DNA of 64,000 nucleotides from Planctomycetota bacterium (GTDB lineage Bacteria > Planctomycetota > GCA-002687715 > DRQF01), in NCBI GenBank assembly GCA_020639295.1, contig JACKGY010000004.1, positions 6,348-70,347 of the forward strand. The letters run 5' to 3'. Both the position numbers and the translations under genes were made by a program. Every line of letters starts with the position of its first letter. Position 1 is the first letter of the stretch. Below, piece by piece: positions 1 to 54,657 of the stretch. A model generated the notes under the pieces. That model was given only the letters and a program-made list of their open reading frames with translations. It was not told where the DNA came from and searched no databases.

Positions 1-999
1 CTTCTGGGAGATCTCGAGCTCGCCCGGCTTCTCAGGATTGATGGCGACGACCATTCCCGCCTCGATCGAGCCGACGCCGGAGATCGGGAAGGGCTCGGCG
101 AGATCGGCGCCTCCCGTGATCTGGAGGACGTGCGTCCGGGTCGTGCCCTCGACCTGGAGCTTCGCTGTCGGCGAGACGGCGCCGATGCCGACGTTGCCGC
201 TCGCGGTGATCCGCAGGTATTCGGACCCGGCGACGTCGAAATGCAGGTCGCCGGCGCCGGACCCGGCGATTCCGATGCTGGCGCTCGTTCCCGGAGCTGC
301 GCCCGGAAACAGGAGCTCGCCCGCCTTCACCATCAGGTCGCCGTCGACGGAGAGCCGCGAGCTCGTCGGTGCCATTCCGATGCCGATGCGGCCGCCATCG
401 TCGATCATCAGATCGCGCTTCTCTGCCGTGCGGCCGATGCCGAAGCCATGGATGTTGTCCGGTGCCCAGGAATTTCCGATGAACCAGTTGCTTGCGATGT
501 CGATGAAGCGGATCGCCTGGTCGTACTGCGCGTGCTGCGTGCTCTCGATGGTCAGGATCGCGTTGGCGTCGTCGCGCCACAGGTGAAGGGCGCTGGTGGG
601 CGAGCCGAATCCGAGCGCGACGTTGCCGGCACCGTCGATCACGAGGTCGTTCTTCGCGGAGTCACGACCGACGCCGAAGCCGTTGACATCGCCCCCGGTC
701 CATTTGTTGCCGAGAAACCAGTTGCTGCCGGGGTCCTTGAAGTGGAGGAACTGGTCGTACTGGGCGCTTGCCGTGCTCTCCAGCACGATGCCGGCATTGG
801 CCGCGCCCGGCGTCAGCGAGACCTGTCCCGGCCAGCTGAAGAGGAGCGGCGTGTTGGCGAGTTGGGAGCCGTCCCAGGCGGGAATGGCATTCTGGGACAG
901 GGGGCCGATCTGACCATGACACTGTAGGGCGAGCATCAGAGCCACGACAGGAACGAAGGCTGCCAAGCGGCCGCCGAAAGGACGAAGAAGCCTGGACAT
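1..999 (-). CDS. Secreted repeat protein, tail-fibre-like (start in window, 3' end runs off window start); paralog of 5507..6694
   Basis: Absent from the ORF track because it has no stop in the window. My translation from ATG at 999 (GGAGGA RBS on the minus strand at 1006-1011) gives MSRLLRPFGGRLAAFVPVVALMLALQCHGQ (signal-like). It then reads [35 protein letters not shown] and a second copy [36 protein letters not shown], co-linear with the 5507..6694 protein. It ends ..LQITGGADLAEPFPISG. Confidence 0.75.
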   Translation of the reverse strand, partial: MSRLLRPFGGRLAAFVPVVALMLALQCHGQIGPLSQNAIPAWDGSQLANTPLLFSWPGQVSLTPGAANAGIVLESTASAQYDQFLHFKDPGSNWFLGNKWTGGDVNGFGVGRDSAKNDLVIDGAGNVALGFGSPTSALHLWRDDANAILTIESTQHAQYDQAIRFIDIASNWFIGNSWAPDNIHGFGIGRTAEKRDLMIDDGGRIGIGMAPTSSRLSVDGDLMVKAGELLFPGAAPGTSASIGIAGSGAGDLHFDVAGSEYLRITASGNVGIGAVSPTAKLQVEGTTRTHVLQITGGADLAEPFPISGVGSIEAGMVVAINPEKPGELEISQK

Positions 1000-1579
1000 C
1001 ACGATTCCTCCACTATGAAGACGAACTCGAGCGACCCTCCGACACTTGCGGAGGAAACTCGCCGCTCGTCGGGCCAGAGGCGCAGCTTTCTGAACGGTGA
1101 CAGGAAATCGGCGGCGAGTCGGATCTCGGCCCGAACGGCGCCATGGCCCGGAATGCCGCGTGTGGGCAGGAACTCCGAGGCGACGACCGCGTCAGGGCTG
1201 CCGGCCCTTGGCGCGGGCTGCTGACACTCGCCGAGAGGGGCCTACCGTCTCAAGAAGCATGCCGAGTAGGTCGCGCCCGGCGTTCGCCGGATCTTCTTGG
1301 GCGGCGTGGGCGTGACCCCAACACCGCCATGGAGAAGTGTCGGGCGGAGGGGGAGGCTCACAGACGAAGCCGTCGCCCAGGCTCGCGAACTATCCGGGTT
1401 CACCCGAGCCGCCGACCGGCGACGGCCCTGCTCTCAGATCGAAACGGATGGGACCAAGCGAGTTGATCTTGGATGCTCCTTCGCTTCGTCGATTGGGTCG
1501 GTGGGATTCGCCCGGCACTGTACTGAAAGGACCCACTCAGGCGCGCTTGATCTTCGTGAGGCGTGAAGGCGTAGGGGGA

Positions 1580-4543
1580 TCACGGGATGATCCTGGCGGG
1601 ACGCAACCCGACGTTGTGGCTGCGGGTCGAGGGCGCCTCGTAGGTGCGGAACGCCACGCGTGCGTACCCGGCCGAATCGTCGAAGCTGCCTCCGCGGAAG
1701 ACGCGGAGGGTCGAGGCGCCTGGATCGCCGCGAAGGCCGCGCGCACCAGGTGCCCCGATGTAGGAGTCGGAGCTGCCATCGAGACACCACTCCCAGACGT
1801 TCCCCGTCATGTCGTGCAGCCCAAAGGTGTTGGCCGCGAAACTGCCGACCGGAGCATGGATGATCCAGTCATCGCGATGTCCTGGCTGCTGATTTGACCA
1901 TCGGACCGCTCTCGTCTCCGAGCCGTTGATGTTGGCGATACGGCGCAGCTCCGAGATCTTGGAACAACCTGCGTAGACCTGATCCGTTCTTCCACCACGC
2001 GCCGCCTGCTCCCACTCGGCCTCGGTCGGAAGCTGAAGATCGACACGCGGCAGAAACACTTGCGCCTCCTCCCATGACACCCGCTCGACCGGATGCCGAG
2101 CGTCCACCGGCGCTCTCAGAGCGGCGTTGATGGCGCCGGGCCCGAACTCGCTCGGATTCGCCTGGAAGGCCCGCCGCCACTGTGCCTGCGTCATCTCGTA
2201 CTTCGACAGGAAATAGGCAAGAAGCGTGACCTCGTTCACCGGCTGCTCATAAGCCTTCGACTCCCGATCGAAATTCGGCTTCGCGGGATCGTCTTTCTGT
2301 GAGCCCATCAGGAAAGTCCCTCCCGGGATCAGCACGAGCACGACGCCGAGTTCCTCGGTCACCGCGATCTTGCCGGTTTCCGCATCGCGCTCGGGGATCG
2401 CGCCCTCATGCGTCAGCCAGTGCAGGAACTCCTCTAACTTTGAGTCCGGATCCGGGCCGAGCGGAATCAGGCCGAGCTGGGGCGCGAGGTCGAGGTCGGC
2501 GTAGATCTCCTTCTTGTCGGCGATGCGCTCCCGGCAAGCGATCCAGCGCGCGGCGATCTCGCCCTCCAAGGTCTCCTGCGCGATGGTACGCGACTGCTCC
2601 AGACGCGCGGCGATCGACTTCACGGGCCCCCGCGCGTCTTCGGCAAAGATCCGCAAGTCGCCAACCAGCTCGGCCAGGACATCATGCTGAAACTGAAGTG
2701 TCTGATCGGCAAATCGCCAGCTCCGGCGTCCCGAAGTCGTCAACTCCTCGAGCTCCGCCAGACGCTTCGCGACCTGTTCGCGGTGATCGACCAGCGGCTT
2801 CTTCTTGGCGTCGTCCTCACCGGCCTCGGAGATGGCCTTGTCCAGCTTCCCGAGCGCCTCCTTCGCCTGGGGAATCTCGGCCAGCTCGGCCGCGAAGTCA
2901 CGTCTCCTGTCGTCATCCGCGTAGGGGAGAGCCTGCGCGCGGAGTTCTTCGAGGTAGGCCAGATGATCGGCGAGCCTCCCGGCCAGCTGGTCGTGCTCCT
3001 CCTGCCAAGCCACAAGTAACGGCACGAGCTCCGGGCTCGGCGGATAGAGCGTCTCCGAGGCCGCGATGGCAGCCTCGAGCCGTTTCACGTCGGCGAGGCG
3101 GTCGTAGTCGTCGAGGGCTTCCTGTTTCCAGTCTCTCTCGCGCTCGGCCGCCTCCAGGGCGGCCGTCTTCTCGGCAAGCGCCGCTTCTTTTGCCTGACGC
3201 TCGCGATTCGCAGCTGCGAGAGCCTTCTGCTCTCGGCCGAGGGCTCGCTGAGCGCTCCGCTCCTTGGTGTAGAAGACGACCGATGCGCATGCGAGCGCCA
3301 GGATGACCAGCGAACCGAGTATCGTGGCGATACGATTGCGTTGCACCCAGCGCTGGGATCGGATCCAGAGACCGGATGGGCGTGCCTGGACCGGCCTTCT
3401 TTCCAGGAATCGCTCGAGGTCATCCGCGAAGTCGGCGGCCGTCGAGAACCGACGATCCGGGTCCTTGTCGAGTGCCGTGAGGATGATTGCCTCGAGGTCC
3501 TTCGGGAACCTCGGATTCGAGCGTCTCGGGGAGGGTGGCTCCATGGTCTCGATCAGCTCGAACAGCTCCCTGGTCGTCGCTGCCTTGAATGGCTTCTGAA
3601 GCGTACAGGCTTCAAACAGGCAGACGCCAAGCGAGTAGACGTCGGTTCGTCGATCGAGATTCGCCGCGCCGCGCGTCTGTTCTGGCGACATGTACGACGG
3701 GGTCCCCATGACGTCGCCGGTCTGCGTCAGGGACGGCCCGTCCGATGAGTCGGCACTCGCGAGCCCGAAATCCAGCACGCAGGGAGACCCATCGTCGCGC
3801 ACGATGATGTTGCCGGGCTTGATGTCGCGATGAACCAGTCCGGCAGCATGGGCGACGTGCAGCGCGCGGGCCACGGCGATCGCGAGACGAACGTCCTCGC
3901 GGATCAACTCCACGCCTGACTCGACGGCTGGCAGAGATCGGGTTCGCGGGTGACGTCGCTCTCCTGCTTCGGGCGAAGACTCCACGGGACGGAGACGGCT
4001 GGTCTCTTCGTCGCAAGCTGCTCGTGTGCGACTTGCGATCACGGCGGCGAGTGTCCGCCCGCGCACGTACTCCATCGCCATGTAGAGCACGCCCTCGTAT
4101 TCGCCGTGATCGTAGACGCGGGGGAAGCCAGAATGTTCGAGTTGCGCGACCGCGGTCGCCTCCCGTTCAAGCCGGAGGCGTCGCTCCTCCGTCAGGCGAT
4201 GATGAAGCGGCAGGATCTTGAGGGCCACGCGTCTTCTGAGCTGCTCGTCCTCGGCCTCGTAGACGACACCTTGGCCGCCTTGCCCGAGGACCCGGATCAA
4301 TCGGTACTTGCCGACAGTTTGCTTGCTCGAAGTGCTGGCAGCGGTCATCTCTGGAGCGCGGATGGCTCCTTCGGTCGTCGATGAGTCGCTCGTGCATGAG
4401 CTGCGCAAGAGCGCGTCGATCTCGCGTTCCAGTTCCGGGAAGAGCTTGAGATACTCCTCCTTCCGGCGGATTGCGTCTCGTTCGAGGTCCTTGTTGAAGA
4501 GCGCCTGGAGCGTGGCGCGTCGATCGTCGGTTTCGTCTGCCAT
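1580..4543 (-). CDS. Ser/Thr protein kinase with TM segment, coiled-coil region and C-terminal FGE-sulfatase-type domain (K1)
   Basis: ORF 1580..4699. Kinase motifs HRDIKPGNIIV, DFGLA, GTPSYMSPE. Hydrophobic segment ILGSLVILALACASVVFY. FGE-sulfatase-like motifs LPTEAEWEQAARGG, GNVWEWCLD, RVFRGGSF. I prefer the start at ATG 4543 (MADETDD), because the longer form would overlap the divergent sigma gene. Confidence 0.9.
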   Translation of the reverse strand: MADETDDRRATLQALFNKDLERDAIRRKEEYLKLFPELEREIDALLRSSCTSDSSTTEGAIRAPEMTAASTSSKQTVGKYRLIRVLGQGGQGVVYEAEDEQLRRRVALKILPLHHRLTEERRLRLEREATAVAQLEHSGFPRVYDHGEYEGVLYMAMEYVRGRTLAAVIASRTRAACDEETSRLRPVESSPEAGERRHPRTRSLPAVESGVELIREDVRLAIAVARALHVAHAAGLVHRDIKPGNIIVRDDGSPCVLDFGLASADSSDGPSLTQTGDVMGTPSYMSPEQTRGAANLDRRTDVYSLGVCLFEACTLQKPFKAATTRELFELIETMEPPSPRRSNPRFPKDLEAIILTALDKDPDRRFSTAADFADDLERFLERRPVQARPSGLWIRSQRWVQRNRIATILGSLVILALACASVVFYTKERSAQRALGREQKALAAANRERQAKEAALAEKTAALEAAERERDWKQEALDDYDRLADVKRLEAAIAASETLYPPSPELVPLLVAWQEEHDQLAGRLADHLAYLEELRAQALPYADDDRRRDFAAELAEIPQAKEALGKLDKAISEAGEDDAKKKPLVDHREQVAKRLAELEELTTSGRRSWRFADQTLQFQHDVLAELVGDLRIFAEDARGPVKSIAARLEQSRTIAQETLEGEIAARWIACRERIADKKEIYADLDLAPQLGLIPLGPDPDSKLEEFLHWLTHEGAIPERDAETGKIAVTEELGVVLVLIPGGTFLMGSQKDDPAKPNFDRESKAYEQPVNEVTLLAYFLSKYEMTQAQWRRAFQANPSEFGPGAINAALRAPVDARHPVERVSWEEAQVFLPRVDLQLPTEAEWEQAARGGRTDQVYAGCSKISELRRIANINGSETRAVRWSNQQPGHRDDWIIHAPVGSFAANTFGLHDMTGNVWEWCLDGSSDSYIGAPGARGLRGDPGASTLRVFRGGSFDDSAGYARVAFRTYEAPSTRSHNVGLRPARIIP

Positions 4544-4665
4544 GATCGCGGACTTTGATCGAGCGTGGGGGCTTTGCGCAAGCACCCGTTCGAAATTGCG
4601 CGTGAGGCGCCGTCGGACGGTTTCGCTGGTTGAGCATCGCATGGAACCGGGGTACTCTTTCCGCC

Positions 4666-5301
4666 ATGGCAGAAGGTCAGGAACATCACGATCAGACATC
4701 GATGCACTGTCGACGCGCGATGGACGGAGACAATGACAGTCTCGGGTGGGTCATTTTCCGCTTTCAGCCCTTGCTGATGTGCCAGGCTCGCTACCGACTC
4801 GGCGACAAGCTGAGGCGAGCGTCGCAGTATCACCCGGAAGACCTCGTGCATGACGTCTGGATACGGGTCATGCCGAAACTCGGTGATCTGCGCAGGGAAG
4901 CGCCGGGAGCCGGTCGTGTTCTGCTCGCCTACCTCAGCCGGACGCTGCAGCGGCGTGCCAACGAGCTCTACGACGAGCACGTCCGGAGGAAGCCAGCGCC
5001 GGCGTCATCCGATGACGAAGACGGCGATCTGATGCAGGAACTGCAGGACCGCTATTCAGGTGTGATCACGAGGGTCGGGCGGGCAGAGGCAACTTCCGAG
5101 CTCGAGGCGGCGCTGGATTCCCTGGACGAGATGGACCGCGAGCTGATCGTCCTGAGAGGGATCGAGGGTCTCGAGATGAAGCAGATCGCAGTGATGCTGC
5201 GGATGAAGCCGAACACGCTCTCCGTACGGTATGCCCGCGCCCGCAAGCACCTTCGTGAACGGTGTCCCGACTCCGCCACCGAAGACCTCGCCGACCCCTG
5301 A
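4666..5301 (+). CDS. ECF-type RNA polymerase sigma factor (S1), divergent from kinase K1
   Basis: ORF 4630..5301. Region-2-like [15 protein letters not shown] and region-4-like [42 protein letters not shown]. Start uncertain (TTG 4630, ATG 4666, 4702 or 4720). Confidence 0.85.
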
Positions 5302-5506: not shown

Positions 5507-6694
5507 ATGTACAGCTACGGAATGCGCGACGGTCTTTGTGCCATGCCCCTACTAATCGCCTTCGTTCTGGTGGGGACCCTCCCGTGCCAGGGGCAGGGCG
5601 GCAACCTCTCGCAGAACGTGATTCCCGTCTGGGACGGCACCCAGCTGGTTGGGTCGCCGTTTCACTACGAGGCTCCGGGACAGCTCGCGCTCCGGCCCGG
5701 AGCCGGCAACGCCGGCCTGCTGATCGAGAGCCTGAACCACCCCCAGTACGACCAGTACATCCACTTTCGGGACCCGGCGAGCGACTGGTTCGTCGGCAAC
5801 AAGTGGACGGGGGGCGACATCCATGGTTTCGGCATCGGTCGCACGGCGGAGAAGAACGACCTCGTGCTTGGCACGAACGGGAACCTCGGCCTCGGCTTCG
5901 GTTCGCCGATGAGCGCCGTCCACGTCTGGCGTGATCGCGCCAACGCCGTCGTCACGATCGAGAGCACGGAGAAGGCCCAGTACGATCAGGCGATCCGCTT
6001 CGTCGATCCGGTCAGTGAGTGGTACGTCGGAAACGTCTGGACCGGTGACGCGCCGGACGGCTTCGGCATCGGGCGCGACTCGGAGAAACGCGATCTGCGC
6101 ATCAACGGCAACGGCGACGTCGGCATCGGCATGAACCCCCGTTCGACGCTGTCGGTCAACGGCCTGATCGACATCTACGCCGGAGGGATCAGCTTCCCCG
6201 ATGGCACCATGCAGTTCAGCGCCATGAACAAGGGCGACACGGGCGCTCAGGGGCAGAAGGGTGATGCTGGCCCCGCGGGTCCGAAGGGCGACACCGGATC
6301 GCCGGGCCCGAAGGGCGATCCTGGCATCCAGGGCCCCAAGGGTGACACGGGTCCGCAGGGGCCCCAGGGTGCCCCCGGCGAGGGATTCAAGGTCGTCAGC
6401 GTTCCGACGGGAACGAATCCGGTGGCAGTTGGTGTCGATACCCTGCACCTCGTCGAGGGCGCGAATATCGAGATCGAGGGCAATGCCACGGCTGACTCCG
6501 TGAAGATCAGCGTGACCGGGACGGTCGAGACCTCCCGGGCCATCGAGCCGATGACCGGCAACGGGGCCCCGAGCGCGAAGCCCGCGCGGATCGGCCTCTT
6601 CTATATCGACATGTCGTCGTCTCCGAGCTCGCGGAACGTGTACCTCAGCACGGGCACCTCGACGATCAACGACTGGACGCGGATCGATCACTGA
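5507..6694 (+). CDS. Secreted collagen-like / tail-fibre-like repeat protein (T1)
   Basis: ORF 5231..6694. Start chosen at ATG 5507 (GGAGGA at 5495-5500), giving [30 protein letters not shown]. Two copies of the QYDQ.I.F.DP.S.W.VGN.WTG...GFGIGR module, then 17 G-X-Y triplets, then a ~100-aa C-terminal domain. Confidence 0.85.
6233..6385 (+). repeat. Collagen-like G-X-Y triplet tract (17 uninterrupted triplets) inside T1
   Basis: [51 protein letters not shown], read directly from the translation. Confidence 0.9.
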
Positions 6695-43593: not shown

Positions 43594-45786
43594 ATGAACC
43601 GAAAGACCAGTTTCGCCGTCCTGTTGTTGCTAGCGATCGGCCTCCGTGCCGCGGCGCAGACCGGGCCCGCCATGGGCGTCTACAAGGGGCTCGACATCAA
43701 GAACATCGTCGCCGGTGACTTCGATCTGGACGGACTTCCAGACGGCATCCATGTCACCGCGAACGACCTCTACGTCGAGCTGAACTACGGCATCGGCAAT
43801 CTCCCCTGGACCCTGACCTTTCCCGGCGAGGGAGGCGACGACGTCGCCGTCCGCGATCTCGACGGGGATTTCAATCTCGACGTGATCGTCCTGCAGTCGG
43901 TCAACGTCAACTACGACCTGGCCACCGTTCGGGTCCTGATCAACGACGGTTTCGGCGGTCTCAACGGCAGCACGGTCCAGATCCGTGGCCGCCACCTGCC
44001 CCAGGTCGTGGACCTGAACGGCGACGGCATCCTCGACCTCCTCGCCGATGACCACTGGAATCGGGGCACCGCCCCGGGCGTCTTCATGCCGGCGCCGCAG
44101 GCGATCGCGATCGTGGACCAGCCACACCTGCCGCTGGGCGATCTGGCGGACGACTTCGGCCTCTATACCGCCGGTGATTTCGACGGAGACGGCGATGCCG
44201 ATCTGCTGCGCTATCGCTACCAGCAGGTCTCGCTGGGGCGCTATGCCTACGCCGACCTCCTGGTCAACGACGGCACCGGCGTCTTCAGCTACCGGAGCAG
44301 CGAACGGGTCTCGTCGCCCAGCTTCGACACGCCAAGGACGCGGTTCGTGGTCTTCGACCACGACCAGGACGGCATCGACGACTTCCTGGTCGAGGACACC
44401 TTCATCGGCCGCCTGGTGATCCACCTCGGTGATCCCGCGGGCCGCTTCCTCGGTGGGCTGGTCCATGTTCCCGGGCAGGGCAGCTTCGTCGGCCGCGCCG
44501 ATCTCGATGGCGACGGCGACCAGGACATCGTCGTGAGACGCCCCGTCTTCTCCACGATCCCCAATCCCAATCCGCCGCCGCCGTCGTTGAACGTGATCGA
44601 GAACGTCGGCCGCGACGTGTTGAGCGAGCCCACGCTGAGCACGCTCTCCTTCATCGACCATCGCTTCGCCGTCGCCGACCTCAACCTCGATGGCCGGGAG
44701 GACTTCGTCTTCCTCGGCCCCTTCGCCACCTTCGGCTTCGGGGTCGCGCTCTCGAACATGCTCTCGACCATCAACCCTCCGGTCCGGGAGCTGGTCGGCG
44801 TCACCGGTGTCGGTCAGGTCGTGCCCGCCGGCACCGCTCCCACGCAAGCGCTCGGCATCGTGCTGCGAACCGCCGGCGGCCAGCCGGTCGGCGGCGAGAC
44901 GGTCACCGTGGCGGCGGAAGCCGGTCTCGTCGGCGCGACCAGTTTCGTGACCAATGCGAGCGGCCTGATCTCCATCCCGTTGAATCTCAGCGAGGTCGTC
45001 GGCCGGCATCGGGTCACCTGCTCGGCTCCTCTTGCCGCCTCGCGACACTTCGTCGTGGAGGTCACGCCGACCCGCAACATCGTGCTCGTCGCCGGCTTCG
45101 ACCAGGGCGCCAACCCGGGCGGGAACTTCCCCCAGCCGCTCCAGGCGCGCGTCGTCGATGCCGCGGGCAGCCCGGTGCCGGGCGTTCCGGTCGAGGTCTC
45201 GCGCGACTGGCCGAACGGTCCCTATCCGATTCCCGGCTCCCCCTTCATGACCGACGCCAGCGGTGCGATCTCGGTCACGGTGCCAGCCGGGCAGCCGTCC
45301 GCCGGGCTGAGCTACGCCGGCGACCTCGGCGATCTCGGGGTCCTGGTCGGCGCGCCGCGCGCGGCGAGCGTCGAGGCGAGGATGTTCACCCGGCGCTTCT
45401 CCGTCGAATTCGGTGTCGTCGGCAGCAGCGGTTCCGGAGGCTGGGTCCTCCGCTACCACCACGAGCACATCTACACGCCGCTCATCCTCATGGCCGACGC
45501 CCCGCAGCCGGCGACGCCCTCGATCTTCGGCAACTGGTACACCTCGTTCCTCAACCCGCAGCCGACCCTCTTCATCCTCGACGGGCTCGGCCTGACCGGG
45601 CCGCCGGTCCCGAGCCTCGTCACCGCGCCGATCCCGGGCTTGCCGGGCTATTCCTACGAGCTGATCATCCCCTGGAACGCCGTTCCGGGCGGGACCCAGG
45701 TCGTGTTCCAGATGCTGAGCTACGACAACGCCTATCCCTTCCCGGCCAAGGTCGGGCTCTCGGACCCGGCCACGGTCACCTTCTGA
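43594..45786 (+). CDS. Secreted FG-GAP/VCBS-repeat protein (F2), paralog of F1
   Basis: In-frame ATG within ORF 43471..45786, with GAGAGGAG at 43581-43588. Signal peptide MNRKTSFAVLLLLAIGLRAAAQ. Co-linear with F1 from TGPAMGVYKGLDIKNIVAGDFDLDGLPDGIHVT to the shared C-terminus PSIFGNWYTSFLNPQPTLFILDGLGLTGPPVP...GTQVVFQMLSYDNAYPFPAKVGLSDPATVTF. Confidence 0.85.
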   Translation: MNRKTSFAVLLLLAIGLRAAAQTGPAMGVYKGLDIKNIVAGDFDLDGLPDGIHVTANDLYVELNYGIGNLPWTLTFPGEGGDDVAVRDLDGDFNLDVIVLQSVNVNYDLATVRVLINDGFGGLNGSTVQIRGRHLPQVVDLNGDGILDLLADDHWNRGTAPGVFMPAPQAIAIVDQPHLPLGDLADDFGLYTAGDFDGDGDADLLRYRYQQVSLGRYAYADLLVNDGTGVFSYRSSERVSSPSFDTPRTRFVVFDHDQDGIDDFLVEDTFIGRLVIHLGDPAGRFLGGLVHVPGQGSFVGRADLDGDGDQDIVVRRPVFSTIPNPNPPPPSLNVIENVGRDVLSEPTLSTLSFIDHRFAVADLNLDGREDFVFLGPFATFGFGVALSNMLSTINPPVRELVGVTGVGQVVPAGTAPTQALGIVLRTAGGQPVGGETVTVAAEAGLVGATSFVTNASGLISIPLNLSEVVGRHRVTCSAPLAASRHFVVEVTPTRNIVLVAGFDQGANPGGNFPQPLQARVVDAAGSPVPGVPVEVSRDWPNGPYPIPGSPFMTDASGAISVTVPAGQPSAGLSYAGDLGDLGVLVGAPRAASVEARMFTRRFSVEFGVVGSSGSGGWVLRYHHEHIYTPLILMADAPQPATPSIFGNWYTSFLNPQPTLFILDGLGLTGPPVPSLVTAPIPGLPGYSYELIIPWNAVPGGTQVVFQMLSYDNAYPFPAKVGLSDPATVTF

Positions 45787-48416: not shown

Positions 48417-48998
48417 TCAGGCGCGGATCGCCGCCCGCAGGCGCTGGAGGACTTGCTTTGAGTCCTCCCAGACCGTCGAGCGGGCGCGGCCGGTCCGTTC
48501 GGCGACCTCGGCCAGGGACAGGCCCTCGACGTAGTAGAGCTGGATCAGCTCGCGCGCCTCGCCGTCCAGCTCGTCCATCGCCTTCTCCAGCCGATCGGTC
48601 GTCTCCCGCCGGGCCGCCCCGCTCGCGACCGAGGTGATGGAAGCGGGGATCGCCGAGGCGATGCTCGCCGCCCGGACGTAGCCCTGGCCCAACCGGCGCC
48701 CCTTGCCCTGGAGATAGCGCAGTCGTTCCCGCACCACGTTGCGCGCCAGGGCCGTCAACCAGCGGTGGAAGCCGCCGCTCTCGTCCTCGACGAAGGCGGC
48801 GCGCAGCTGCCAGGCCCGGAAGATGACCAGCTGGTGGAGGTCGTCCTCGTCCTGGTCGCCGCTCGGCAGGCCGCGCGCGAGCTGGCGGATGAACAGACGG
48901 AGGGGCAGGGCGTGGCGCTCGATCAGCTGCGCGAAGGCGGCGTCGTCACCCGCGCGCATGCGGGCGACCAGGCTCGGGTCCGGCGACGAGGCGCTCAT
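48417..48998 (-). CDS. ECF-type sigma factor (S4), coupled to K4 (ATGA overlap); paralog of S3
   Basis: In-frame ATG 48998 within ORF 48417..49454; it overlaps the K4 stop (48995-48997). Reads DDLHQLVIFRAWQLRAAF...WLTALARNVVRERLRYL...LIQLYYVEGLSLAEVAERTGRARSTVWEDSKQVLQRL. Confidence 0.85.
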   Translation of the reverse strand: MSASSPDPSLVARMRAGDDAAFAQLIERHALPLRLFIRQLARGLPSGDQDEDDLHQLVIFRAWQLRAAFVEDESGGFHRWLTALARNVVRERLRYLQGKGRRLGQGYVRAASIASAIPASITSVASGAARRETTDRLEKAMDELDGEARELIQLYYVEGLSLAEVAERTGRARSTVWEDSKQVLQRLRAAIRA

Positions 48999-51946
48999 CG
49001 CCCGCGCGCCAGGTAAGGGATGTTCATCACCGGCCGCACGCCGATGTTCCCGTCCGGTGACTGGGCGTCCGTGCCGATGCGGGCGGCCGAGCGTGCGTCG
49101 TTCATGGTGTAGGCGAAGGCGCCGCCGCGGAAGATCCGCAGGGTGTCGTTGCTGCTGAACAGCCGCAGGCCGTCGCCTGGGCGGACCGGCCGGTCGTAGT
49201 AGCCGAAACGATCGAGACACCACTCGTAGACGTTGCCGTAGGTGTCGTGGAGACCCCAGGGATTCGGCAGGTAGGAACCGACCGGGGCATGCAGGGCGTA
49301 ACCGTCGTCGAAGTCGCCGAGCCCGCCGTTCTGCTTCTCCCCCGTGAGCCCGGCATGGGCCAGGTCCGTGACGTTGACGCGACCCTTCGCGCCCTCGACG
49401 TCGTCGCCGAAGCTCCAGATCGTGTCCGTCCCCGCGCGGGCCAGGCACTCCCACTGCGCCTCCGTCGGCAGGTCGAGCCCGAAGTGCCCGAGGACGTCTA
49501 CGGCCTCGAACCAGGACAGATACTCGACCGGGTTCCTGGGGGTCACGAACTCGCCCTTGCGGGATTCGTCGCCGATCTTGATGGATGAGGGATTCCGGCC
49601 CGCCAGGTGGATCCAGGCGGCCTGCCAGGCCTCGTACTTCGAGGCCAGGAAGGGATCGAGCACGACCTGGTGGCGCGGGCCCTCGTAGTCGCGCGCCATC
49701 GGATCGTAATGCGGCTTGCCCGGCTCCAGGACGCTGCCCATCGTGAACGCGCCACCCGGCACGAGCACGAAGATGAGGCCGCAGTCCGGGTCGAGCGCCG
49801 GCAGGCGACCCTCGGCGTCGCGCTTCGGGACTTCCTTCTGCTCGTGCGACAGGAAGTGCAGGAACTCCTGGAGTCCCGAGTCCGGATCACGACCGAGCGG
49901 CACGAGGCCGGTGATCGGCCGCAGCTCGAAGCCGGCGAAGCGTCGGTCCGCGGCGAGTTCCTCACCCGCGCGGCGCCAGGCCTCGACGTGGCCTTCGATG
50001 GTGTCGGCGACCAGCGATTCGGCCGCGGCCATGCGCGCCCGCACGCCGGCGAGCAGCCCCGTGCCATCCTCGGGATCGATCCGCGCGATCTGGGCCACGA
50101 GGTGGCGGAGGACCTCGGCCCGCCAGGCGTCGGCCGCCTCGGGGTAGCTGGAATTCTCCAGCCTCGCGACCAGGGCCTCGTAGGCCTTGATGCGCGGGGA
50201 AAGGAGCTCGCTCACGACGCCCTGCGCGGCCTTCGCGGTCCCGCCTTGGAGGCCGGCCCGGCCGTCCTCGTAGGTCTTCAGCTGGTCGCGCATGCGTTCG
50301 AGCTCGGCCCACTCGTGGGGGAGCGCCGCGGCGATCGCGGCCTGGTCGAGCGGGATCTTGCGCTCGAGCAGGGCGGCCAGACCGGTCTCGTGCCGCGCGC
50401 GGCGTCGGAGGAGCTCCTCGGCCCGGTTCAGCCAGTCCCGCATGCGCGGCAAGGTCTCGGGAGCGACCGGCCAGAGCGAGCTCTCCTCGGCGACGAGATC
50501 GTTGGCCTTCTTCACGTCGGAGAGGACCAGCACCTCGTCGAGCGCGCTGGCCAGGCTGTCGCCACGTTCGACCGCCTCCTGCCGCAGCCGGTCGATCCGA
50601 CGCTTGCCCAGCGCGGTCGAGATCGAGAATGCGGTGAGCGTCGCCAGGACGAGGAGACCCAGCGTCGCGACGACGGCGTTGCGCCGGTACCAGCGCAGGG
50701 CCTTGGTCGCTCCGCCGACCGGGCGGACCGACACGGTCTCGCCGCGGCGCAGCCGACCGAGATCCTCGGCCAGGTCGGCGGCCGAACGGTAGCGGCGCTG
50801 CGGCTCGAGTTCCATCGCCGTGGCCACGACGACGGCGAGGTCGCGGCCGATGCCGGCCTGGGCGCGGTCGAGGGGCGTGGCGTCGCCGCGCAGGACCCGA
50901 CGGAAGAGCTCCTCGATCGTGGGCGCCTCGAAGGGCCGACGTCCGGACAGGAGTTCGTAGGCCGTGATGCCGAGGGCGTAGACGTCCTCGGTCGGGGCCG
51001 CCTCGAGCTTCGGATGCCGGAGGCGCTCGGGGGCGATGTAGGCCGGAGTGCCCAGGACGTCCAGGCTCGCGGTCAAGCTCGGCCCCTGATCGTCGAGGAT
51101 CTTGGCCAAGCCGAAGTCGAGGAGCACCGGCGAACCGTCCTCGCGGAGCATCACGTTGCCCGGCTTCAGATCCCGGTGGACGACGCCGGCCGCGTGTGCG
51201 GTCTCGAGCGCGCGCGCCACCTGTTCGAGGATCTCGAGCCGGCGCTCGATCTCCTGACGATCGAGCCGGTCGCCGGAGCGGCCCTCCTGGATCAGCTGGG
51301 TCAGGCTGCTGCCGGATACCAGCTCCATGGCGATGAAGGGCTGCCCGTTGTCGACGCCGGCCTCGAAGATCTTGCCGATGCCCGGGTGCGACAGCCGCGA
51401 GACCGCGCGGGCCTCGCGCTTGAAGCGTTCCAGACCACGATCATCGAGCGCGGCGCCGAGGTGGAAGACCTTGAGCGCGACCTTCCGGCCCAGCTTGACG
51501 TCGACCGCGCGATGGACGGTCGCCTGGCCACCGCGGCCGAGCGTCTCTTCGCAGCGGTAGGTGGCGACCTGCCCGGCGCCGGCGTCGGCGGCGCCGCGGC
51601 TCCCCGACACCAGGGCCAGATAGCAGCGCGCGACCTCCTCGACCGCCCCGGGGAACTCCGCCAGATAGTCCGCGAGGCTCCGGTCCCGGTCCTCGGCCCG
51701 GTCGCGCCAGTAGGCGTCGAGGAAGGCGGCCACCGAGCGCGCGGCGGGGTCCTCGTCGCGGGCTCCGATCGGCTCCTCGCCGAGATCGAGCTCCTCCGGC
51801 CGACCGCCGCGGAGCTCCAGCATCTCGTCGAATTCGCGCCGCTGCGCGGGTGTGAGGGCTCGGTACTCGGACCCGACGCGGCCCCCGTCAAGGGCGCGCT
51901 GCAGGAGGTCGTCGAGGTGGTCGAAGTCGAGATCGTCGGCGCTCAT
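48995..51946 (-). CDS. Ser/Thr protein kinase with TM, coiled-coil and C-terminal FGE-sulfatase-type domain (K4); paralog of K3
   Basis: 983-aa ORF. Kinase motifs HRDLKPGNVML, DFGLA, GTPAYIAPE. TM segment VVATLGLLVLATLTAFSI. FGE-sulfatase-like motifs LPTEAQWECLARAG, GNVYEWCLD, RIFRGGAF. Co-linear with K3 along its whole length (about half or more of residues identical by eye). Confidence 0.9.
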   Translation of the reverse strand: MSADDLDFDHLDDLLQRALDGGRVGSEYRALTPAQRREFDEMLELRGGRPEELDLGEEPIGARDEDPAARSVAAFLDAYWRDRAEDRDRSLADYLAEFPGAVEEVARCYLALVSGSRGAADAGAGQVATYRCEETLGRGGQATVHRAVDVKLGRKVALKVFHLGAALDDRGLERFKREARAVSRLSHPGIGKIFEAGVDNGQPFIAMELVSGSSLTQLIQEGRSGDRLDRQEIERRLEILEQVARALETAHAAGVVHRDLKPGNVMLREDGSPVLLDFGLAKILDDQGPSLTASLDVLGTPAYIAPERLRHPKLEAAPTEDVYALGITAYELLSGRRPFEAPTIEELFRRVLRGDATPLDRAQAGIGRDLAVVVATAMELEPQRRYRSAADLAEDLGRLRRGETVSVRPVGGATKALRWYRRNAVVATLGLLVLATLTAFSISTALGKRRIDRLRQEAVERGDSLASALDEVLVLSDVKKANDLVAEESSLWPVAPETLPRMRDWLNRAEELLRRRARHETGLAALLERKIPLDQAAIAAALPHEWAELERMRDQLKTYEDGRAGLQGGTAKAAQGVVSELLSPRIKAYEALVARLENSSYPEAADAWRAEVLRHLVAQIARIDPEDGTGLLAGVRARMAAAESLVADTIEGHVEAWRRAGEELAADRRFAGFELRPITGLVPLGRDPDSGLQEFLHFLSHEQKEVPKRDAEGRLPALDPDCGLIFVLVPGGAFTMGSVLEPGKPHYDPMARDYEGPRHQVVLDPFLASKYEAWQAAWIHLAGRNPSSIKIGDESRKGEFVTPRNPVEYLSWFEAVDVLGHFGLDLPTEAQWECLARAGTDTIWSFGDDVEGAKGRVNVTDLAHAGLTGEKQNGGLGDFDDGYALHAPVGSYLPNPWGLHDTYGNVYEWCLDRFGYYDRPVRPGDGLRLFSSNDTLRIFRGGAFAYTMNDARSAARIGTDAQSPDGNIGVRPVMNIPYLARGR

Positions 51947-52078
51947 GGGGCATCCGGCTCGGGGCGAGCTGCCATCTTAGTGGCCTCGGTTCGCGCCCGG
52001 AACGAACAAATTCTCCCGGGCCGCTCCGCCCAAACCCGATCCCCGAGCGGGCTTGCGTCGGTCGGTCCGGATCGCCGC

Positions 52079-52096
52079 GAAATTCTCCGGACGAGG
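52079..52096 (+). promoter_or_regulatory. Conserved motif GAAATTCTCCGGACGAGG in the divergent K4/P4 intergenic region
   Basis: 56 nt upstream of the P4 ATG; counterpart of 30261-30278. The downstream leaders also resemble each other: GCAACCAAACCCCTTCGGAGA versus GAACCAGAAACCCCCACACCGGAGA. Confidence 0.35.
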
Positions 52097-52152
52097 CGGG
52101 CTTCGCGGCCCTTGGTCTCGTGTCCGCAACCAAACCCCTTCGGAGACCCCCC

Positions 52153-54657
52153 ATGAAGCATGTAGCCCTCTTCTCGATCCTCCTTTGCCTCCTGGCCGGG
52201 CAGGGCCTGGCCCAGTACCAGCTCCCGACCCCCGGCCTGGCGAGCAACGTCTCTCCCGGCACGATGTTCGACATCCAGGCCGGCACGGCCGACATCCGGA
52301 TCACCGGCTTCGACACCTACTTCCAGGCCGGGCTCGCGGAGGTCGAGATCTATCGGGTCACCAACGGCACGAGCTTCGTCGGCAATGAGAACGACGCCAA
52401 CGCCTGGACTCTCGTGGCCACGGCGACGATCAGCTCGAACGGTGGCTCGACGCCTACCCAGCTCCCTTGCGCGCTCGACGTCGACATCCGGGCCGGGGCG
52501 ACCCAGGGCTTCTACATCACCGTGTCGACCGGTCTCGTGTACCTGAACTACCGGACCGGCACGAACAGCGGTGGTGTGCTCGCCGCCAACACGGATCTGA
52601 CCATCCGCGAGGGTGTCGGCAAGAATTACCCCTTCGGCACCACCTTCGGGACCACGACCGCGGGCGGCTCGTCGCGGAACTTCTGCGGGGTCGTTCGATA
52701 CGACAAGGGCTTCGAGAATTCCTACTACCAGATCGGGGTGACCCCGACGGTGACCGACGCCAAGTCGAGCGTCACCCTCAACCTGAGGGCGGAGGCGCGC
52801 GACGTGGTCCTCGATCGGATCGCGGTCACGCTCGCGGCCGGCACCCATGACCTCGAACTCTGGGTCACCGAGAACTACCTCAGCTCCGGCGCCGTCGGCA
52901 CGAATCCCGGCGACTGGCGCAAGATCGGTTCGACGACCGGATTCGTCGCCTCGGGCGGCCGCGATCGCCTGCCGATGGACTTCGAGGTGGTCATTCCCAA
53001 GGGCACGAGCCGGGGCTTCTACCTGGTCTCGAGCCAGTCCGCCGGCATTCCCTTCTCGAACGTGAACCTCGCGTCGCCATCCGACAAGCTGACGGTCCTG
53101 GCCGGCAAGTCCTATGCCGGTCCCGGCCTGTTCACCAACCAGGTCTCCACCGCGTTCATCCAGGCCACCTACTACTACCACATCCCGGAGCAGAACTTCG
53201 GCATCACGCCCGGCGGGACCGGGGTCATGACCAGTCCGGCCACGCCGAGCTTCTTCGACGTGGGGACCTTCTACGACGTCAAGTCGAACGAGGCGATCGT
53301 CATCGAGTCGCTCGATCACGTGGTCTTGGCCGGGACGCACACCATCGAGGTCTGGGCGGTCACCGGCGGCGGCAGCTGGGCCTCCAATCAGAGCAACCAG
53401 GCGGCCTGGACGTTGATCAGCACCGAGTCGGTCACCGCGGCGAACTCGGGCTCGGTGCAGGTCGCCAAGGATCTGCGGCTGTTCATCCCGGCGGGCGGCG
53501 TGCAGGGGCTCTACGTCACCGGGACCTCGAACGGCACCAATTCGATCCTCTACGAACAGGACTTCTCCACCGCGGGCGACTTCGCCACCGATGGCACCGT
53601 CACCCTGGCGACCGGCGGCGCCGGCGACTATCCCTTCGTGCCCCAGGTCTACTCCGTCAAGCCCAACGTCTCGGTCCACTACCGCGAGCTCGGGCAATCG
53701 CTCGGCGGCTTCCTGGAGACCTTCGCCAGCGCCTCGGGCATCCAGCCGCCGTCCGGGTGGATCTCGTCCCTGGTGACCGGCGACCGTCCGAAGCTGGACG
53801 GCTGGCGCTTCGACAATCCGGGCGGCCGCCCCATCAACTCGCCCATCTCGGCCCCGATGGCCATCTGCGACTCCGACGAATCCGGGAGCGGCAATCCCAT
53901 CGACGCGGCCCTCATCTCGCCGCGCTTCGACGCCTCGATCGGCAAGGTGACCCTCGCCTTCGACCACCACTTCCGTCAGTTCGACACCAGCGTGGGCGCG
54001 GTCGAGGTCTGGAACGGATCGAGCTGGGTTCTCGTCGCCAGCTTCTCGGCGGATACCGCCAACCCGGCGCACCAGAGCTACGACATCACCGCGGCCGCCG
54101 GCGGCTACGAAGAGGCGATGATCCGGTTCCGCTACACCGGCGACTTCGAGTGGTGGTGGATGATCGACAACGTGCACCTCGCCATCGGCCAGCTCGGTCA
54201 GCGGCCGCAGCTCGGCATCGGCGAGTTCGACATCAACTACGCCACCGACGCCGTCCACGGCCAGCCGGTCAGCTCCGGTCTCCCCGGTCCCTACGTCGCC
54301 ACCGCGGACATCTTCTCGCCCACGGTCTTCCGCTGGGACGGCGAGCCGAATCAGCCGGTGCAGCTCTTCGTCGGCAATCTCAATCTCGCCAACGTGGTGC
54401 TCATGCCGCAGGGCCAGCTCGACGTCGGCAGCTACGATCCGGGCACCGGAACCTTCCCGGGCATCCTGCTGCTCGCCGACGGCACCGCGCCCGACCTCTT
54501 GAACGCCGCCTTCCGCACCTCGAGCGGCGGGCGCCTGGTGATGCCGCTCTACCTGCCGCCCTACACGGTCGGCTTCACCTATCACTTCCAGAGCGTCGTC
54601 TACTCCTCGACCCAGAACATCGCGCTCACCAACGTGGTGTCCATGACGGTCGAATGA
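52153..54657 (+). CDS. Secreted ~835-aa protein, P family (P4)
   Basis: ORF 52120..54657, with start ATG 52153 giving MKHVALFSILLCLLAGQGLAQ. Three internal repeats. MAM-like block GWRFDNPG..SPRFDAS..VEVWNGSSWVLV..MIRFRYTGDFEWWWMIDNV. C-terminal module QRPQLGIGEFDIN..WDGEPNQPVQLF..PQGQLDVGSYDP..FQSVVYSSTQNIALTN. Confidence 0.85.
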   Translation: MKHVALFSILLCLLAGQGLAQYQLPTPGLASNVSPGTMFDIQAGTADIRITGFDTYFQAGLAEVEIYRVTNGTSFVGNENDANAWTLVATATISSNGGSTPTQLPCALDVDIRAGATQGFYITVSTGLVYLNYRTGTNSGGVLAANTDLTIREGVGKNYPFGTTFGTTTAGGSSRNFCGVVRYDKGFENSYYQIGVTPTVTDAKSSVTLNLRAEARDVVLDRIAVTLAAGTHDLELWVTENYLSSGAVGTNPGDWRKIGSTTGFVASGGRDRLPMDFEVVIPKGTSRGFYLVSSQSAGIPFSNVNLASPSDKLTVLAGKSYAGPGLFTNQVSTAFIQATYYYHIPEQNFGITPGGTGVMTSPATPSFFDVGTFYDVKSNEAIVIESLDHVVLAGTHTIEVWAVTGGGSWASNQSNQAAWTLISTESVTAANSGSVQVAKDLRLFIPAGGVQGLYVTGTSNGTNSILYEQDFSTAGDFATDGTVTLATGGAGDYPFVPQVYSVKPNVSVHYRELGQSLGGFLETFASASGIQPPSGWISSLVTGDRPKLDGWRFDNPGGRPINSPISAPMAICDSDESGSGNPIDAALISPRFDASIGKVTLAFDHHFRQFDTSVGAVEVWNGSSWVLVASFSADTANPAHQSYDITAAAGGYEEAMIRFRYTGDFEWWWMIDNVHLAIGQLGQRPQLGIGEFDINYATDAVHGQPVSSGLPGPYVATADIFSPTVFRWDGEPNQPVQLFVGNLNLANVVLMPQGQLDVGSYDPGTGTFPGILLLADGTAPDLLNAAFRTSSGGRLVMPLYLPPYTVGFTYHFQSVVYSSTQNIALTNVVSMTVE

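Follow-up and report, generated by a model that had tools for sequence, protein, structure and literature searches.

Signalling and secreted-protein genes in the region

The stretch of DNA analysed here (the window, 64,000 nt with a GC content of about 70%) is a planctomycete genome region rich in signalling genes. A gene map based on third-position GC and Pfam searches over the window contains four pairs of an ECF sigma factor and a Hanks Ser/Thr kinase, where a sequence-only reading had placed them, and all three ATGA stop/start overlaps that it had noticed (S2→K2, K3→S3 and K4→S4) were seen. Of the Pfam families that it had proposed to look for, Pkinase, FGE-sulfatase, WD40, the sigma regions and FG-GAP have matches in the window. 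A fifth sigma, at 35252–37759 on the minus strand, forms one protein with a transmembrane segment and CarboxypepD_reg repeats and has no kinase partner. K1–K4 share one architecture, in which a single transmembrane helix separates a cytoplasmic Pkinase domain from a periplasmic domain of WD40 or FGE-like type; the FGE-like domains of K1, K3 and K4 are non-catalytic. No anti-sigma Pfam match was obtained in the genes adjoining S1–S4. Each pair directly adjoins a P- or T-family paralog with a signal peptide, and Sec-type signal peptides are found in all P, F and T family proteins; these proteins had been described as giant, but their actual lengths are 395–846 aa. The four pairs are of at least two types, not a single one.

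The first pair lies between two T-family genes:

1–1002, minus strand: T2, T-family paralog, partial, running off the window start, downstream of K1
1580–4699, minus strand: K1, kinase with Pfam matches to Pkinase (3.6e-36) and FGE-sulfatase (1.3e-43)
4666–5301, plus strand: S1, ECF sigma; TIGR02937 63 bits (cutoff 42.9), Sigma70_r4_2 1.7e-10
5507–6694, plus strand: T1, secreted collagen-repeat protein with a signal peptide, downstream of S1; Pfam Collagen 32.5 bits

S1 and K1 are divergent, and S1 has an alternative TTG start at 4630. K1 carries the VALK/HRD/DFG/SPE motifs and a single transmembrane helix (residues 457–475), while its periplasmic FGE-like domain contains no CxxxxC motif, the catalytic cysteines being missing. 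Region 2.2 of S1 reads PEDLVHDV. T2 combines a signal peptide, MSRLLRPFGGRLAAFVPVVALMLALQCHGQ, with a fibre-like body; residues 248–288 match a PHROG tail-fiber segment, and there is no Pfam match for the protein. The longest T1 reading frame opens at 5231, the likely start being 5507, with GGAGG before it, and a tandem-repeat finder placed a 27/54-nt repeat at 6229–6360. T1 and T2 are 58% identical, and a comparison of the T upstream regions gave nothing in common above chance. For pair 1, control of the adjoining T gene is no more than a guess based on position.

The second pair is followed by two P genes, and the F family is listed with it:

10699–12894, plus strand: F1, secreted FG-GAP/VCBS and Big_1 protein with a signal peptide; FG-GAP_3 77.8 bits
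13023–15539, minus strand: P1 (MCB9831606.1 / H6807_03955), secreted, tandem jelly-roll domains (MAM/choice-of-anchor-J-like)
15595–15607, minus strand: motif TTTCTGGCGGACG upstream of P1, with a twin at 18303–18315 (minus strand) upstream of P2; weak evidence
15667–18207, minus strand: P2, P paralog, co-directional with and downstream of S2 and K2
18620–22030, minus strand: K2, kinase with catalytic motifs present; Pfam Pkinase 9.6e-46 and WD40 2e-52
22027–22638, minus strand: S2, ECF sigma; Sigma70_ECF PF07638 4e-45, 154 bits; TIGR02999 173.6 bits (cutoff 126)
43594–45786, plus strand: F2, F-family paralog with FG-GAP_3 and Big_1 matches

The K2 start codon overlaps the S2 stop as ATGA, and K2 exposes a periplasmic WD40 propeller beyond its transmembrane helix (residues 402–420). 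P1 is 31–38% identical to P2–P4. NCBI names P2 a choice-of-anchor J protein; its residues 526–684 match NCBIfam NF038128 choice_anch_J at 34.2 bits (cutoff 30). The TTTCTGGCGGACG pattern is matched twice in the window, where 0.33 matches would be expected, and the local alignment of the P1 and P2 upstream regions is not significant, its score being reached by 24 of 300 shuffles. Control of P1 and P2 by pair 2 is likewise only a guess, drawn from their position.

The proposed placement of secreted-protein genes beside the pairs holds in large part: T paralogs flank pair 1, K2 is followed downstream by P2 and then P1, P3 and P4 are divergent from K3 and K4, respectively, and F1 is convergent with P1. 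However, F1 lies two genes from K2, and F2 (51% identical to F1) abuts no pair; between F2 and S4 are unrelated methyltransferase and DUF885 genes. The third component is not fixed, contrary to what had been suggested: it is T at pair 1 and P at pairs 2–4, with F only loosely placed anywhere. Family genes are marginally enriched in the eight slots flanking the pairs (hypergeometric p ~0.047, window alone), an enrichment that is not independent because cassettes 3 and 4, described below, are duplicates.

A duplicated three-gene cassette

The third and fourth pairs each stand beside a divergent P gene:

27676–30198, minus strand: P3, P family, divergent from K3
30261–30281, minus strand: promoter-like element CGAGAAATCTCCGGACGGAGG, 67 nt upstream of the P3 start
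30366–33452, plus strand: K3, kinase with Pfam Pkinase and FGE matches; NCBI start 30426
33449–34027, plus strand: S3, ECF sigma with Pfam sigma r2 and r4 matches; ATGA overlap with K3
48417–48998, minus strand: S4, ECF sigma, S3 paralog; ATGA overlap with K4
48995–51946, minus strand: K4, K3 paralog; Pfam Pkinase 3.8e-41 and FGE-sulfatase 2.8e-29
52077–52097, plus strand: promoter-like element GCGAAATTCTCCGGACGAGGC, 60 nt upstream of the P4 ATG at 52153
52153–54657, plus strand: P4, P family, divergent from K4; alternative GTG start at 52120

Judged by their sequences, P3-K3-S3 and P4-K4-S4 are duplicate copies of one three-gene cassette (K3/K4 53%, S3/S4 60% and P3/P4 51% identity). The single transmembrane helix of K3 spans residues 449–467, that of K4 residues 424–442. 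In PDB sequence searches the FGE-like domain of K3 matches FGE, PvdO and PorK, and it contains neither the catalytic Cys pair nor a CxxxxC motif; since the catalytic cysteines are lost, the domain most likely acts as a ligand-binding sensor in K3 and K4. Region 2.2 is acidic in both sigmas (DEEDLYQL in S3, DEDDLHQL in S4), and both conserve a Ser/Thr-rich linker, AASIASEIPASITSVAS in S3. The linker is the most similar part of S3 and S4 (73%, against 57% for sigma-2 and 50% for sigma-4), and its pattern AASIASAIPxSITSIxS is kept in 5/5 orthologs, with S110, S113, S118, T120, S121 and S124 invariant.

P1–P4 are 31–51% identical pairwise over their full length, and a fifth paralog, H6807_17260, occurs on a different contig of the same MAG. 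The AlphaFold2 model of P3 is all-beta (pLDDT 71), with Foldseek matches to reelin repeats, MAM domains and gingipain cleaved-adhesin domains, and Pfam MAM or Cleaved_Adhesin is present in relatives of the P domains. P is a secreted protein in which jelly-roll domains of the MAM/cleaved-adhesin type, in tandem, precede a strongly conserved C-terminal domain (67–74% identity), the N-terminal domains diverging fastest (28–38%). Downstream of P4 are a VWA gene (54866–56986) and the U4 gene (56976–58481), which also follow the P4 orthologs in assemblies L005 and L001.

Conservation of the cassette in other genomes

A P-like gene is linked to a kinase and a sigma of the cassette 3/4 type in three other Planctomycetota assemblies (L002; L005 with L001; L006), so that the cassette sample is five copies from four related assemblies, two of them fairly closely related to the genome of the window. 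In L005/L001 the P gene is divergent from K, followed by S (P4 ortholog 54–69%, K4 59%, S4 65% identity). L002, at 52% GC, shows 49–51% identity for P, 47–49% for K and 57% for S, in a rearranged layout where P converges on S rather than diverging from K. In L006, K and then S accompany a divergent 125-aa signal-peptide protein, a single-domain P that matches positions 580–666 of the P profile (E = 2.8e-6). The expected synteny did not extend to more distant P homologs, which have no kinase or sigma nearby in L003 and L004, nor to other sigma/kinase pairs (L008, L010), which adjoin unrelated families (BNR/Sortilin, beta-helix, CarboxypepD_reg and beta-lactamase-family); neighbours of the P/F/T type are there replaced by different protein families or missing.

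It is possible, although we regard it as unlikely, that adjacency is a by-product of local family expansion, segmental duplication having copied P, kinase and sigma genes whose neighbours are functionally uncoupled. Cassettes 3 and 4 are plain duplicates, the in-window enrichment is marginal, and planctomycete genomes hold many ECF sigmas and kinases (PMC7826278, PMC11032199). The heterogeneous neighbours of other pairs, the distant P homologs without pairs, the T upstream regions without common sequence and the non-significant P1/P2 motif would fit such an origin as well. It accounts poorly for a P-K-S linkage kept in three other assemblies, including a rearranged layout at a very different GC content and a shrunken single-domain P, or for the specific element conserved upstream of P in 5/5 cassettes.

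A conserved element upstream of P

The element, CGAGAWWTCTCCGGAC, is located 60–67 nt upstream of the P-like start in 5/5 cassette copies, where the chance of a match at that position is ~3e-4 per locus. The surrounding upstream DNA is unalignable between the 70% GC and 52% GC genomes. Within the window the 9-mer TCTCCGGAC has just two exact occurrences, upstream of P3 and of P4. Both P sites score 27–33 bits against a position weight matrix (32.8 bits for P3) and the next-best window site 8 bits, scores that are not independent since the four training sites include both window P sites. A TCAMT-like box follows the element by 15 nt in 4/5 copies, P4 being the exception. Element and box together resemble an ECF promoter in sequence, the layout GGAC ... 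15 nt ... TCAMT being comparable to the E. coli sigma-E consensus. Ahead of the K-S operons, reading towards K, no copy of the element turned up, and there is hence no sign of the autoregulation that ECF sigmas usually show; the distant P homolog of L003 also lacks the element in its upstream region.

The element shows partial dyad symmetry (TCCGGA core; GAGAWWTCTC, GAGAAATCTC) and could thus be an operator for another regulator. That a dimeric transcription factor whose gene lies elsewhere uses it as an operator, or that it belongs to a housekeeping-sigma promoter, with S3 and S4 controlling other genes, seems to us very improbable. Its conserved length of 15–20 nt exceeds a typical ECF −35 box, and low-GC orthologs carry ATCAAT or TCCAAT at −10, like a weak sigma-70 −10 box. 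Against this, the sigma is the sole transcription-factor gene conserved across the cassettes, the element is seen with P only at loci that also hold K and S, and its spacing and boxes have the ECF-like layout noted above.

Relation to known systems

Signalling via sensor-kinase/sigma-factor pairs is an already known kind of system, and the earlier view that these loci could not be mapped to a described one was too strong: kinase-associated ECF groups of Planctomycetota (ECF59–62, ECF217 and others; PMC7826278) and kinases with FGE-like or WD40 domains are described (PMC11032199). ECF59–ECF62 and ECF217 (Jogler 2012, Casas-Pastor 2021) have in common with the pairs here the phylum, the sigma/kinase synteny and the lack of a detected anti-sigma; the literature examined mentions no P-type neighbour and no TCTCCGGAC element for these groups. 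Single-pass Ser/Thr kinases with periplasmic WD40, TPR or sulfatase-modifying-enzyme-like domains, the architecture of K1–K4, are common in the phylum, in a survey that treats kinases alone and does not cover partner sigmas and secreted neighbours (PMC11032199).

In EcfP/PknT of Vibrio parahaemolyticus and EcfK/PknS of Xanthomonas citri, ECF43 sigmas are activated by an adjoining Hanks kinase (PMC13147305, PMC8999054). The likeness lies in an ECF sigma beside a Hanks kinase that crosses the membrane once and has an extracytoplasmic sensor domain, with no anti-sigma gene detected; the sensor domains here are instead FGE-like or WD40, and the output is one secreted jelly-roll/fibre-like protein rather than a secretion system (EcfK/PknS switches on an adjoining T6SS cluster) or a resistance regulon. 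The ECF43 analogy previously drawn for the pairs suits S2 only, whose region 2.2 (QPTMLVQE; QPTM against the QTTA consensus) is uncharged and contains a Thr. S2 looks like an ECF43-like sigma, and pair 2 is an ECF43-like system separate from cassettes 3/4, to which a phospho-threonine charge switch in region 2.2 plausibly applies. S3 and S4 have acidic DEED/DEDD residues that are missing in ECF43 (PMC13147305, PMC8999054), S1 also retains acidic residues there, and other ECF groups keep a DAED-like motif (PMC7826278, PMC8999054); because region 2.2 is acidic, the charge switch is not directly transferable to these three. FecA/FecR/FecI offers a functional analogy, with an envelope protein, a transmembrane transducer and an ECF sigma that targets the envelope-protein gene, although the transducer here is a kinase and not an anti-sigma, and P is not a TonB-dependent receptor.

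A proposed kinase/sigma/secreted-protein unit

The self-contained modules of kinase, sigma and secreted protein that had been envisaged for all four pairs are supported in cassettes 3 and 4, by cross-genome linkage and the conserved element, and not as a general rule; comparable evidence was not found for pairs 1 and 2 or the F family. We hypothesize, with slightly better than even confidence, that cassettes 3/4 are a conserved kinase/sigma/secreted-target unit, the window otherwise holding separate pair types. Conserved target genes next door are the norm for ECF groups (PMC7826278), and the sequence evidence makes it likely that the secreted, adhesin-like P gene is switched on by its K/S pair.

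P might also be an input and not just an output, binding an external ligand or surface for the FGE-like domain of K, or being itself the ligand, in a co-receptor circuit with possible positive feedback; we consider this a rather remote prospect. An FGE-like domain without catalytic cysteines is probably a binding module, P is made only of binding-type folds, its fast N-terminal divergence and conserved C-terminal domain fit a constant anchor that bears a variable recognition surface, and L006 keeps only the MAM-like domain. The promoter-like element suggests that P is a regulated gene; feedback would be consistent with this, though not required by it.

Under the target-gene reading, a sigma-70-like promoter of their own would drive K and S, S being translationally coupled to K, and a periplasmic signal would turn on K. 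By analogy with EcfP/PknT and EcfK/PknS, K would phosphorylate S, probably in the conserved Ser/Thr-rich linker rather than in region 2.2 because the acidic motif there is intact in S3/S4; linker phosphosites have precedent in EcfK (PMC13147305). S may then guide RNA polymerase to the conserved element, with TCTCCGGAC as the −35-like box and TCAMT 15 nt downstream as the −10-like box. Once exported, P would, as its fold suggests, work as a binding or adhesive protein at the cell surface.

Gene content of the window

The window has a GC content of about 70%, so raw ORF lists are crowded with shadow ORFs; genes were called by third-position GC, and the called genes were then scanned with Pfam and NCBIfam. 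By these calls, four pairs of a Hanks kinase (K1–K4) and a partner ECF sigma factor (S1–S4) are real and lie where the sequence-only reading had placed them. The two genes adjoin each other in all four pairs, and the ATGA stop/start overlap that had been described for three junctions was found at each of the three. A Pfam/HMM search, proposed with that reading, matched Pkinase, FGE-sulfatase, WD40, ECF sigma and FG-GAP domains.

Kinase and sigma genes of the window, with two further features
1580-4699 (-): K1, divergent from S1
4666-5301 (+): S1, ECF sigma divergent from K1
18620-22030 (-): K2, kinase downstream of S2
22027-22638 (-): S2, upstream partner of K2, ATGA overlap
30366-33452 (+): K3, upstream partner of S3, ATGA overlap
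33449-34027 (+): S3, sigma downstream of K3
35252-37759 (-): fifth ECF sigma (r2 + r4) fused to CarboxypepD_reg repeats (Pfam)
48417-48998 (-): S4, sigma downstream of K4
48995-51946 (-): K4, upstream partner of S4, ATGA overlap
62617-63999 (+): DDE transposase (DDE_Tnp_1_4, E = 1.6e-151), incomplete at the right edge of the window

Further signalling genes encode a PAS histidine kinase, a PAS-GGDEF-EAL protein and a hybrid histidine kinase. The fifth sigma has a long C-terminal extension and no kinase partner; a single transmembrane helix (residues 196-214) joins its sigma part to an extracytoplasmic region of about 600 aa. Four called genes gave no match in Pfam or, when run through it, in PADLOC. 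Three of them lie between S2 and P3 and show a strong coding signal, 22659-24101 (+), 24114-26159 (+) and 26168-27652 (-), the first two also having no NCBIfam match. The fourth, 56976-58481 (-), encodes a protein with six transmembrane helices and is kept beside a VWA gene in L001, a contig of another assembly. Rfam and tRNA scans of the window returned no matches.

A dispersed intergenic repeat family forms tandem arrays at 18349-18610 (between K2 and P2), 34035-35125 (in a 1.2-kb ORF-free gap after S3) and 62165-62519 (just before the DDE transposase, which adjoins it), with the common core CGGAGCGCCAGCCGCTGGCTGGCCTAGTC(T/C)TCTTCG. The periods are 100, 163, 231 and 394 nt, with 95-98% matches in three of the five reported arrays and 76% in the period-394 row. 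The family, which has no match in Rfam, might represent a REP- or MITE-like element.

Linkage of kinase, sigma and secreted protein

Three families of secreted-protein paralogs lie near the pairs: P1–P4, F1/F2 and T1/T2, where T2 is a partial gene at 1-1002 (-). Of the eight slots next to the pairs, five hold P or T genes, a marginal enrichment within the window (hypergeometric p ~0.047) that is inflated, since a single cassette has been duplicated to give P3-K3-S3 and P4-K4-S4 (K3/K4 53%, S3/S4 60% and P3/P4 51% identical). The F family had also been placed beside the pairs; F2 adjoins none, and F1 is two genes away.

Other genomes carry the argument further for cassettes 3 and 4. At the locus L002 (GCA_054016375.1, 52% GC), the orthologs of P, K and S (49-51%, 47-49% and 57% identical) are neighbours, with P convergent with S and not divergent from K. 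The arrangement in two contigs of GCA_041601735.1 (L005 and L001) is P divergent from K, with S after K; the VWA gene and an ortholog of the 56976-58481 membrane-protein gene then follow, the same neighbours that P4 has in the window. In L006 (a Logan assembly, 52% GC), K is followed by S, and the gene divergent from K encodes a signal-peptide protein of 125 aa whose match to the P profile is confined to the MAM-like part (E = 2.8e-6). Together with cassettes 3 and 4, these loci couple the K-S pair to a P-like secreted protein in five of five cassettes from four genomes. A scan of genome contigs returned one locus, and metagenome scans with P and with the S3 family gave no matches. The neighbourhood comparison that had been suggested upholds the P-K-S linkage for cassettes 3 and 4, but no kinase or sigma gene lies near the more distant P homologs (L003, L004), and a distant FGE-type kinase at L007 lacks a nearby sigma gene.

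For pairs 1 and 2 no orthologous loci were found. There are no K2 orthologs among the kinase matches, the best being 31% identical. P0156, which was considered as K1 itself, is instead an extra K1-like paralog of the FGE type (47% identical), located outside the window on the same 694-kb contig. The idea of self-contained modules of kinase, sigma and secreted effector, put forward for all four pairs, gains from cross-genome linkage and from a conserved upstream element in cassettes 3 and 4; for pairs 1 and 2 it is a conjecture from adjacency, and nothing comparable turned up there or for the F family.

The third component had been described as fixed. It varies between systems where present: PF07638 sigma/kinase pairs in L008 have BNR/Sortilin, beta-helix and CarboxypepD_reg neighbours, and in L010 a beta-lactamase-family gene lies between sigma and kinase, while the sigma is preceded by a gene for a SpoIIE phosphatase. 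Such variation from system to system is usual for ECF target genes.

A conserved element upstream of P

A promoter-like element, CGAGAWWTCTCCGGACRRAGG, sits 60-67 nt upstream of all five P-like start codons, each of which is preceded by a GGAG ribosome-binding site. In the 64-kb window, the exact 9-mer TCTCCGGAC has only two copies, one at P3 and one at P4, each correctly oriented; L002 (at the expected place) and L005 have one copy each, and L006 has it with one mismatch. The flanking DNA is otherwise unalignable between the window, at 70% GC, and the 52% GC genomes, and the chance of a match to the element in a 20-nt band is ~3e-4 per locus. With a weight matrix built from four sites, both window sites among them, these two score 27-33 bits and everything else in the window at most 8 bits. 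No extra site appears in the window, including upstream of P1, P2, the T and F genes or the K-S operons in the direction of K. Counts of looser 12-mer and 13-mer patterns were no better than chance.

In four of the five copies, TCACT, TCAAT or CCAAT follows 15 nt downstream of the element, and we write the whole pattern as CGAGAWWTCTCCGGAC, then a TCAMT-like box 15 nt later. The E. coli sigma-E consensus is GGAACTT, 16 nt, TCAAA. By this analogy, the layout of element and box resembles an ECF promoter, which we treat as a lead. The K-S operons appear to be served by sigma-70-like -10 boxes of their own (TACAAT/TATAAT in L002 and L006, TATGAT in L005, TAAGAT at K4), and no copy of the P element was seen driving K.

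The motif TTTCTGGCGGAYG, which P1 and P2 have in common in their upstream regions, is not significant (the observed score was reached in 24 of 300 shuffles), and in a shuffle test the upstream regions of T1/T2 and F1/F2 have nothing in common above chance.

Secreted proteins

P1–P4 are 31-51% identical over their full length, F1 and F2 51%, and T1 and the product of 1-1002 (-) 58%; all eight have Sec signal peptides. The sequence-only reading called them giant, which overstates their size (395-846 aa). Its description of P as MAM-like is probably right at the superfamily level, as judged from structure, NF038128 and relatives. The all-beta model of P3 (mean pLDDT 71) retrieved reelin repeats, MAM domains (2c9a, 8a28) and gingipain cleaved-adhesin domains in Foldseek, with target-normalised TM-scores of 0.62-0.66. 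NF038128 (choice-of-anchor J, cutoff 30) is passed by P2 (34.2) and by the fifth P paralog P0005 (30.4), P4 staying below it (18.8) and P1 and P3 giving no match. Pfam MAM has no match in P1–P4, but relatives retrieved by the P profile do match it or Pfam Cleaved_Adhesin. The fifth paralog (MCB9834215.1, H6807_17260) belongs to the same MAG, on a 36.9-kb contig outside the window.

A sequence search of the PDB with the P profile returned no match. When P3 and the P alignment were used in word-indexed protein searches, a single homolog came back besides P3 itself. In an exhaustive profile search, P domains are common (5121 matches at E up to 0.001) and the full-length architecture is very rare, with about four representatives besides the window genes among 1.84 billion.

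Within P3/P4 and P1/P2, the N-terminal domains are the most divergent (28-38% identity) and the C-terminal ~150 aa the most conserved (67-74%). This C-terminal domain (27676-28140 in P3, and the same 3′ ends of P1, P2 and P4) reads QRPQLGIGEFD ... WEGEPNQP ... QGQLDIGSYDP ... FQSVVFSSTQNIALTN and has no Pfam or NCBIfam model. Since it is always at the extreme C-terminus, also in the other profile matches P0031, P0070, P0075 and P0083, its position suggests an undescribed sorting or anchoring domain. The AlphaFold2 model of P3 has low confidence at residues 747-787.

The F proteins combine FG-GAP/VCBS and Ig-like repeats (FG-GAP_3: F1 77.8 and F2 55.9 bits, cutoff 26.9). T1 matches Pfam Collagen (32.5 bits, cutoff 27.2), and its PHROG matches are due only to the collagen repeat, which does not occur in the visible part of T2 (1-1002).

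Kinases and sigma factors

All four kinases have the Hanks motifs VAxK, HRDxKxxN, DFG and APE/SPE and Pkinase E-values of 1e-36 to 1e-45 (Pfam). Each has one transmembrane helix after the kinase domain, and their C-terminal domains are therefore taken to be extracytoplasmic. In K2 this domain is a WD40 propeller (Pfam); in K1, K3 and K4 it is homologous to FGE, PvdO and PorK/GldK (PF03781, 1e-25 to 1e-43, with sequence matches in the PDB). An FGE/SUMF1 enzyme can be rejected despite the FGE fold: the catalytic cysteine pair (CxxxxC after the RGGS motif) is absent from K1, K3 and K4, where the aligned stretches read RGGSFDDSAGYAR, RGGAYGYGINESR and RGGAFAYTMNDAR, respectively. Because the pair is missing, the FGE-like domain is most likely a binding module. 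Kinases of this architecture are described as common in Planctomycetota (PMC11032199).

An N-terminal extension of 100-150 aa precedes the kinase domain in all four (1580-4699, 18620-22081, 30366-33452, 48995-51946), with 41% identity between K3 and K4. The kinase PknS has a similar conserved extension to which no role is assigned (PMC13147305). In K1–K4, the sigma might dock on this extension.

S1–S4 score 63.4, 52.9, 76.9 and 73.3 bits with TIGR02937 (cutoff 42.9) and have Pfam r2, r4 or Sigma70_ECF matches and no r3 or r1, which identifies them as ECF sigmas. S2 also scores above the cutoffs of two models that we take to be linked to ECF43, PF07638 and TIGR02999. In ECF43, the acidic DxxD of region 2.2 is replaced by uncharged residues and a conserved Thr, with the consensus QTTA (PMC13147305). 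Region 2.2 reads QPTMLVQE in S2, DEEDLYQL in S3, DEDDLHQL in S4 and PEDLVHDV in S1, so the ECF43 feature is found in S2 only, and an assignment of S1, S3 and S4 to that group was rejected on their acidic residues. The analogy with ECF43 that had been drawn for the pairs thus holds for S2, with its uncharged, Thr-containing region 2.2, but not for the other three. For the same reason, the charge switch of EcfP, the sigma of the EcfP/PknT system, is transferable to S2 only. A DAED-like motif is retained in kinase-associated ECF groups besides ECF43, and these may operate by another route (PMC8999054).

The DEED motif is kept in five of five orthologs of the S3 family, as is the linker AASIASAIPxSITSIxS, the segment with the highest conservation between S3 and S4 (73%). 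In EcfK, phosphorylation at T106 in the linker was shown (PMC13147305). No anti-sigma Pfam domain was found in the flanking genes; the three Pfam-less genes between S2 and P3 may still encode anti-sigmas.

Proposed mechanism and significance

In cassettes 3 and 4 we observe a defined gene content and topology, linkage across genomes and a conserved cis element. We propose that the periplasmic FGE-like domain senses a signal, that the kinase would then phosphorylate its co-translated sigma, that the sigma would activate the P promoter, and that P would be secreted as a binding or adhesive protein. Because the acidic region 2.2 motif is intact and the linker is the best conserved part, we predict, by analogy with T106 of EcfK, that phosphorylation of the linker, on Ser/Thr residues at about positions 110-124, is the switch of S3-family sigmas. 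Because the P3 and P4 elements are nearly identical, each of the two sigmas S3 and S4 may also activate the target of the other.

[quoted passage not shown] We consider this unlikely; if true, the cassette would be a self-contained, duplicable surface-sensing module.

To our knowledge, experimental work on kinase-controlled ECF sigmas is confined to a few proteobacteria, and we know of no targets or signals for the many planctomycetal kinase–ECF examples. Kinase association is established for ECF43, ECF59-62, ECF217, ECF267 and ECF283 (PMC7826278). The mechanism leading from kinase to sigma is supplied by EcfP/PknT of Vibrio parahaemolyticus and EcfK/PknS of Xanthomonas citri, EcfK controlling neighbouring T6SS genes (PMC8999054, PMC13147305). 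The original observation is confirmed and its interpretation partly borne out: the locus refines an existing kind of system and reveals no new kind. Added here are a specific conserved kinase–sigma–target cassette, a candidate promoter and a candidate phospho-acceptor segment outside ECF43. The locus is a compact testable case, with one candidate target gene and two paralogous copies in one genome in which cross-talk can be addressed.
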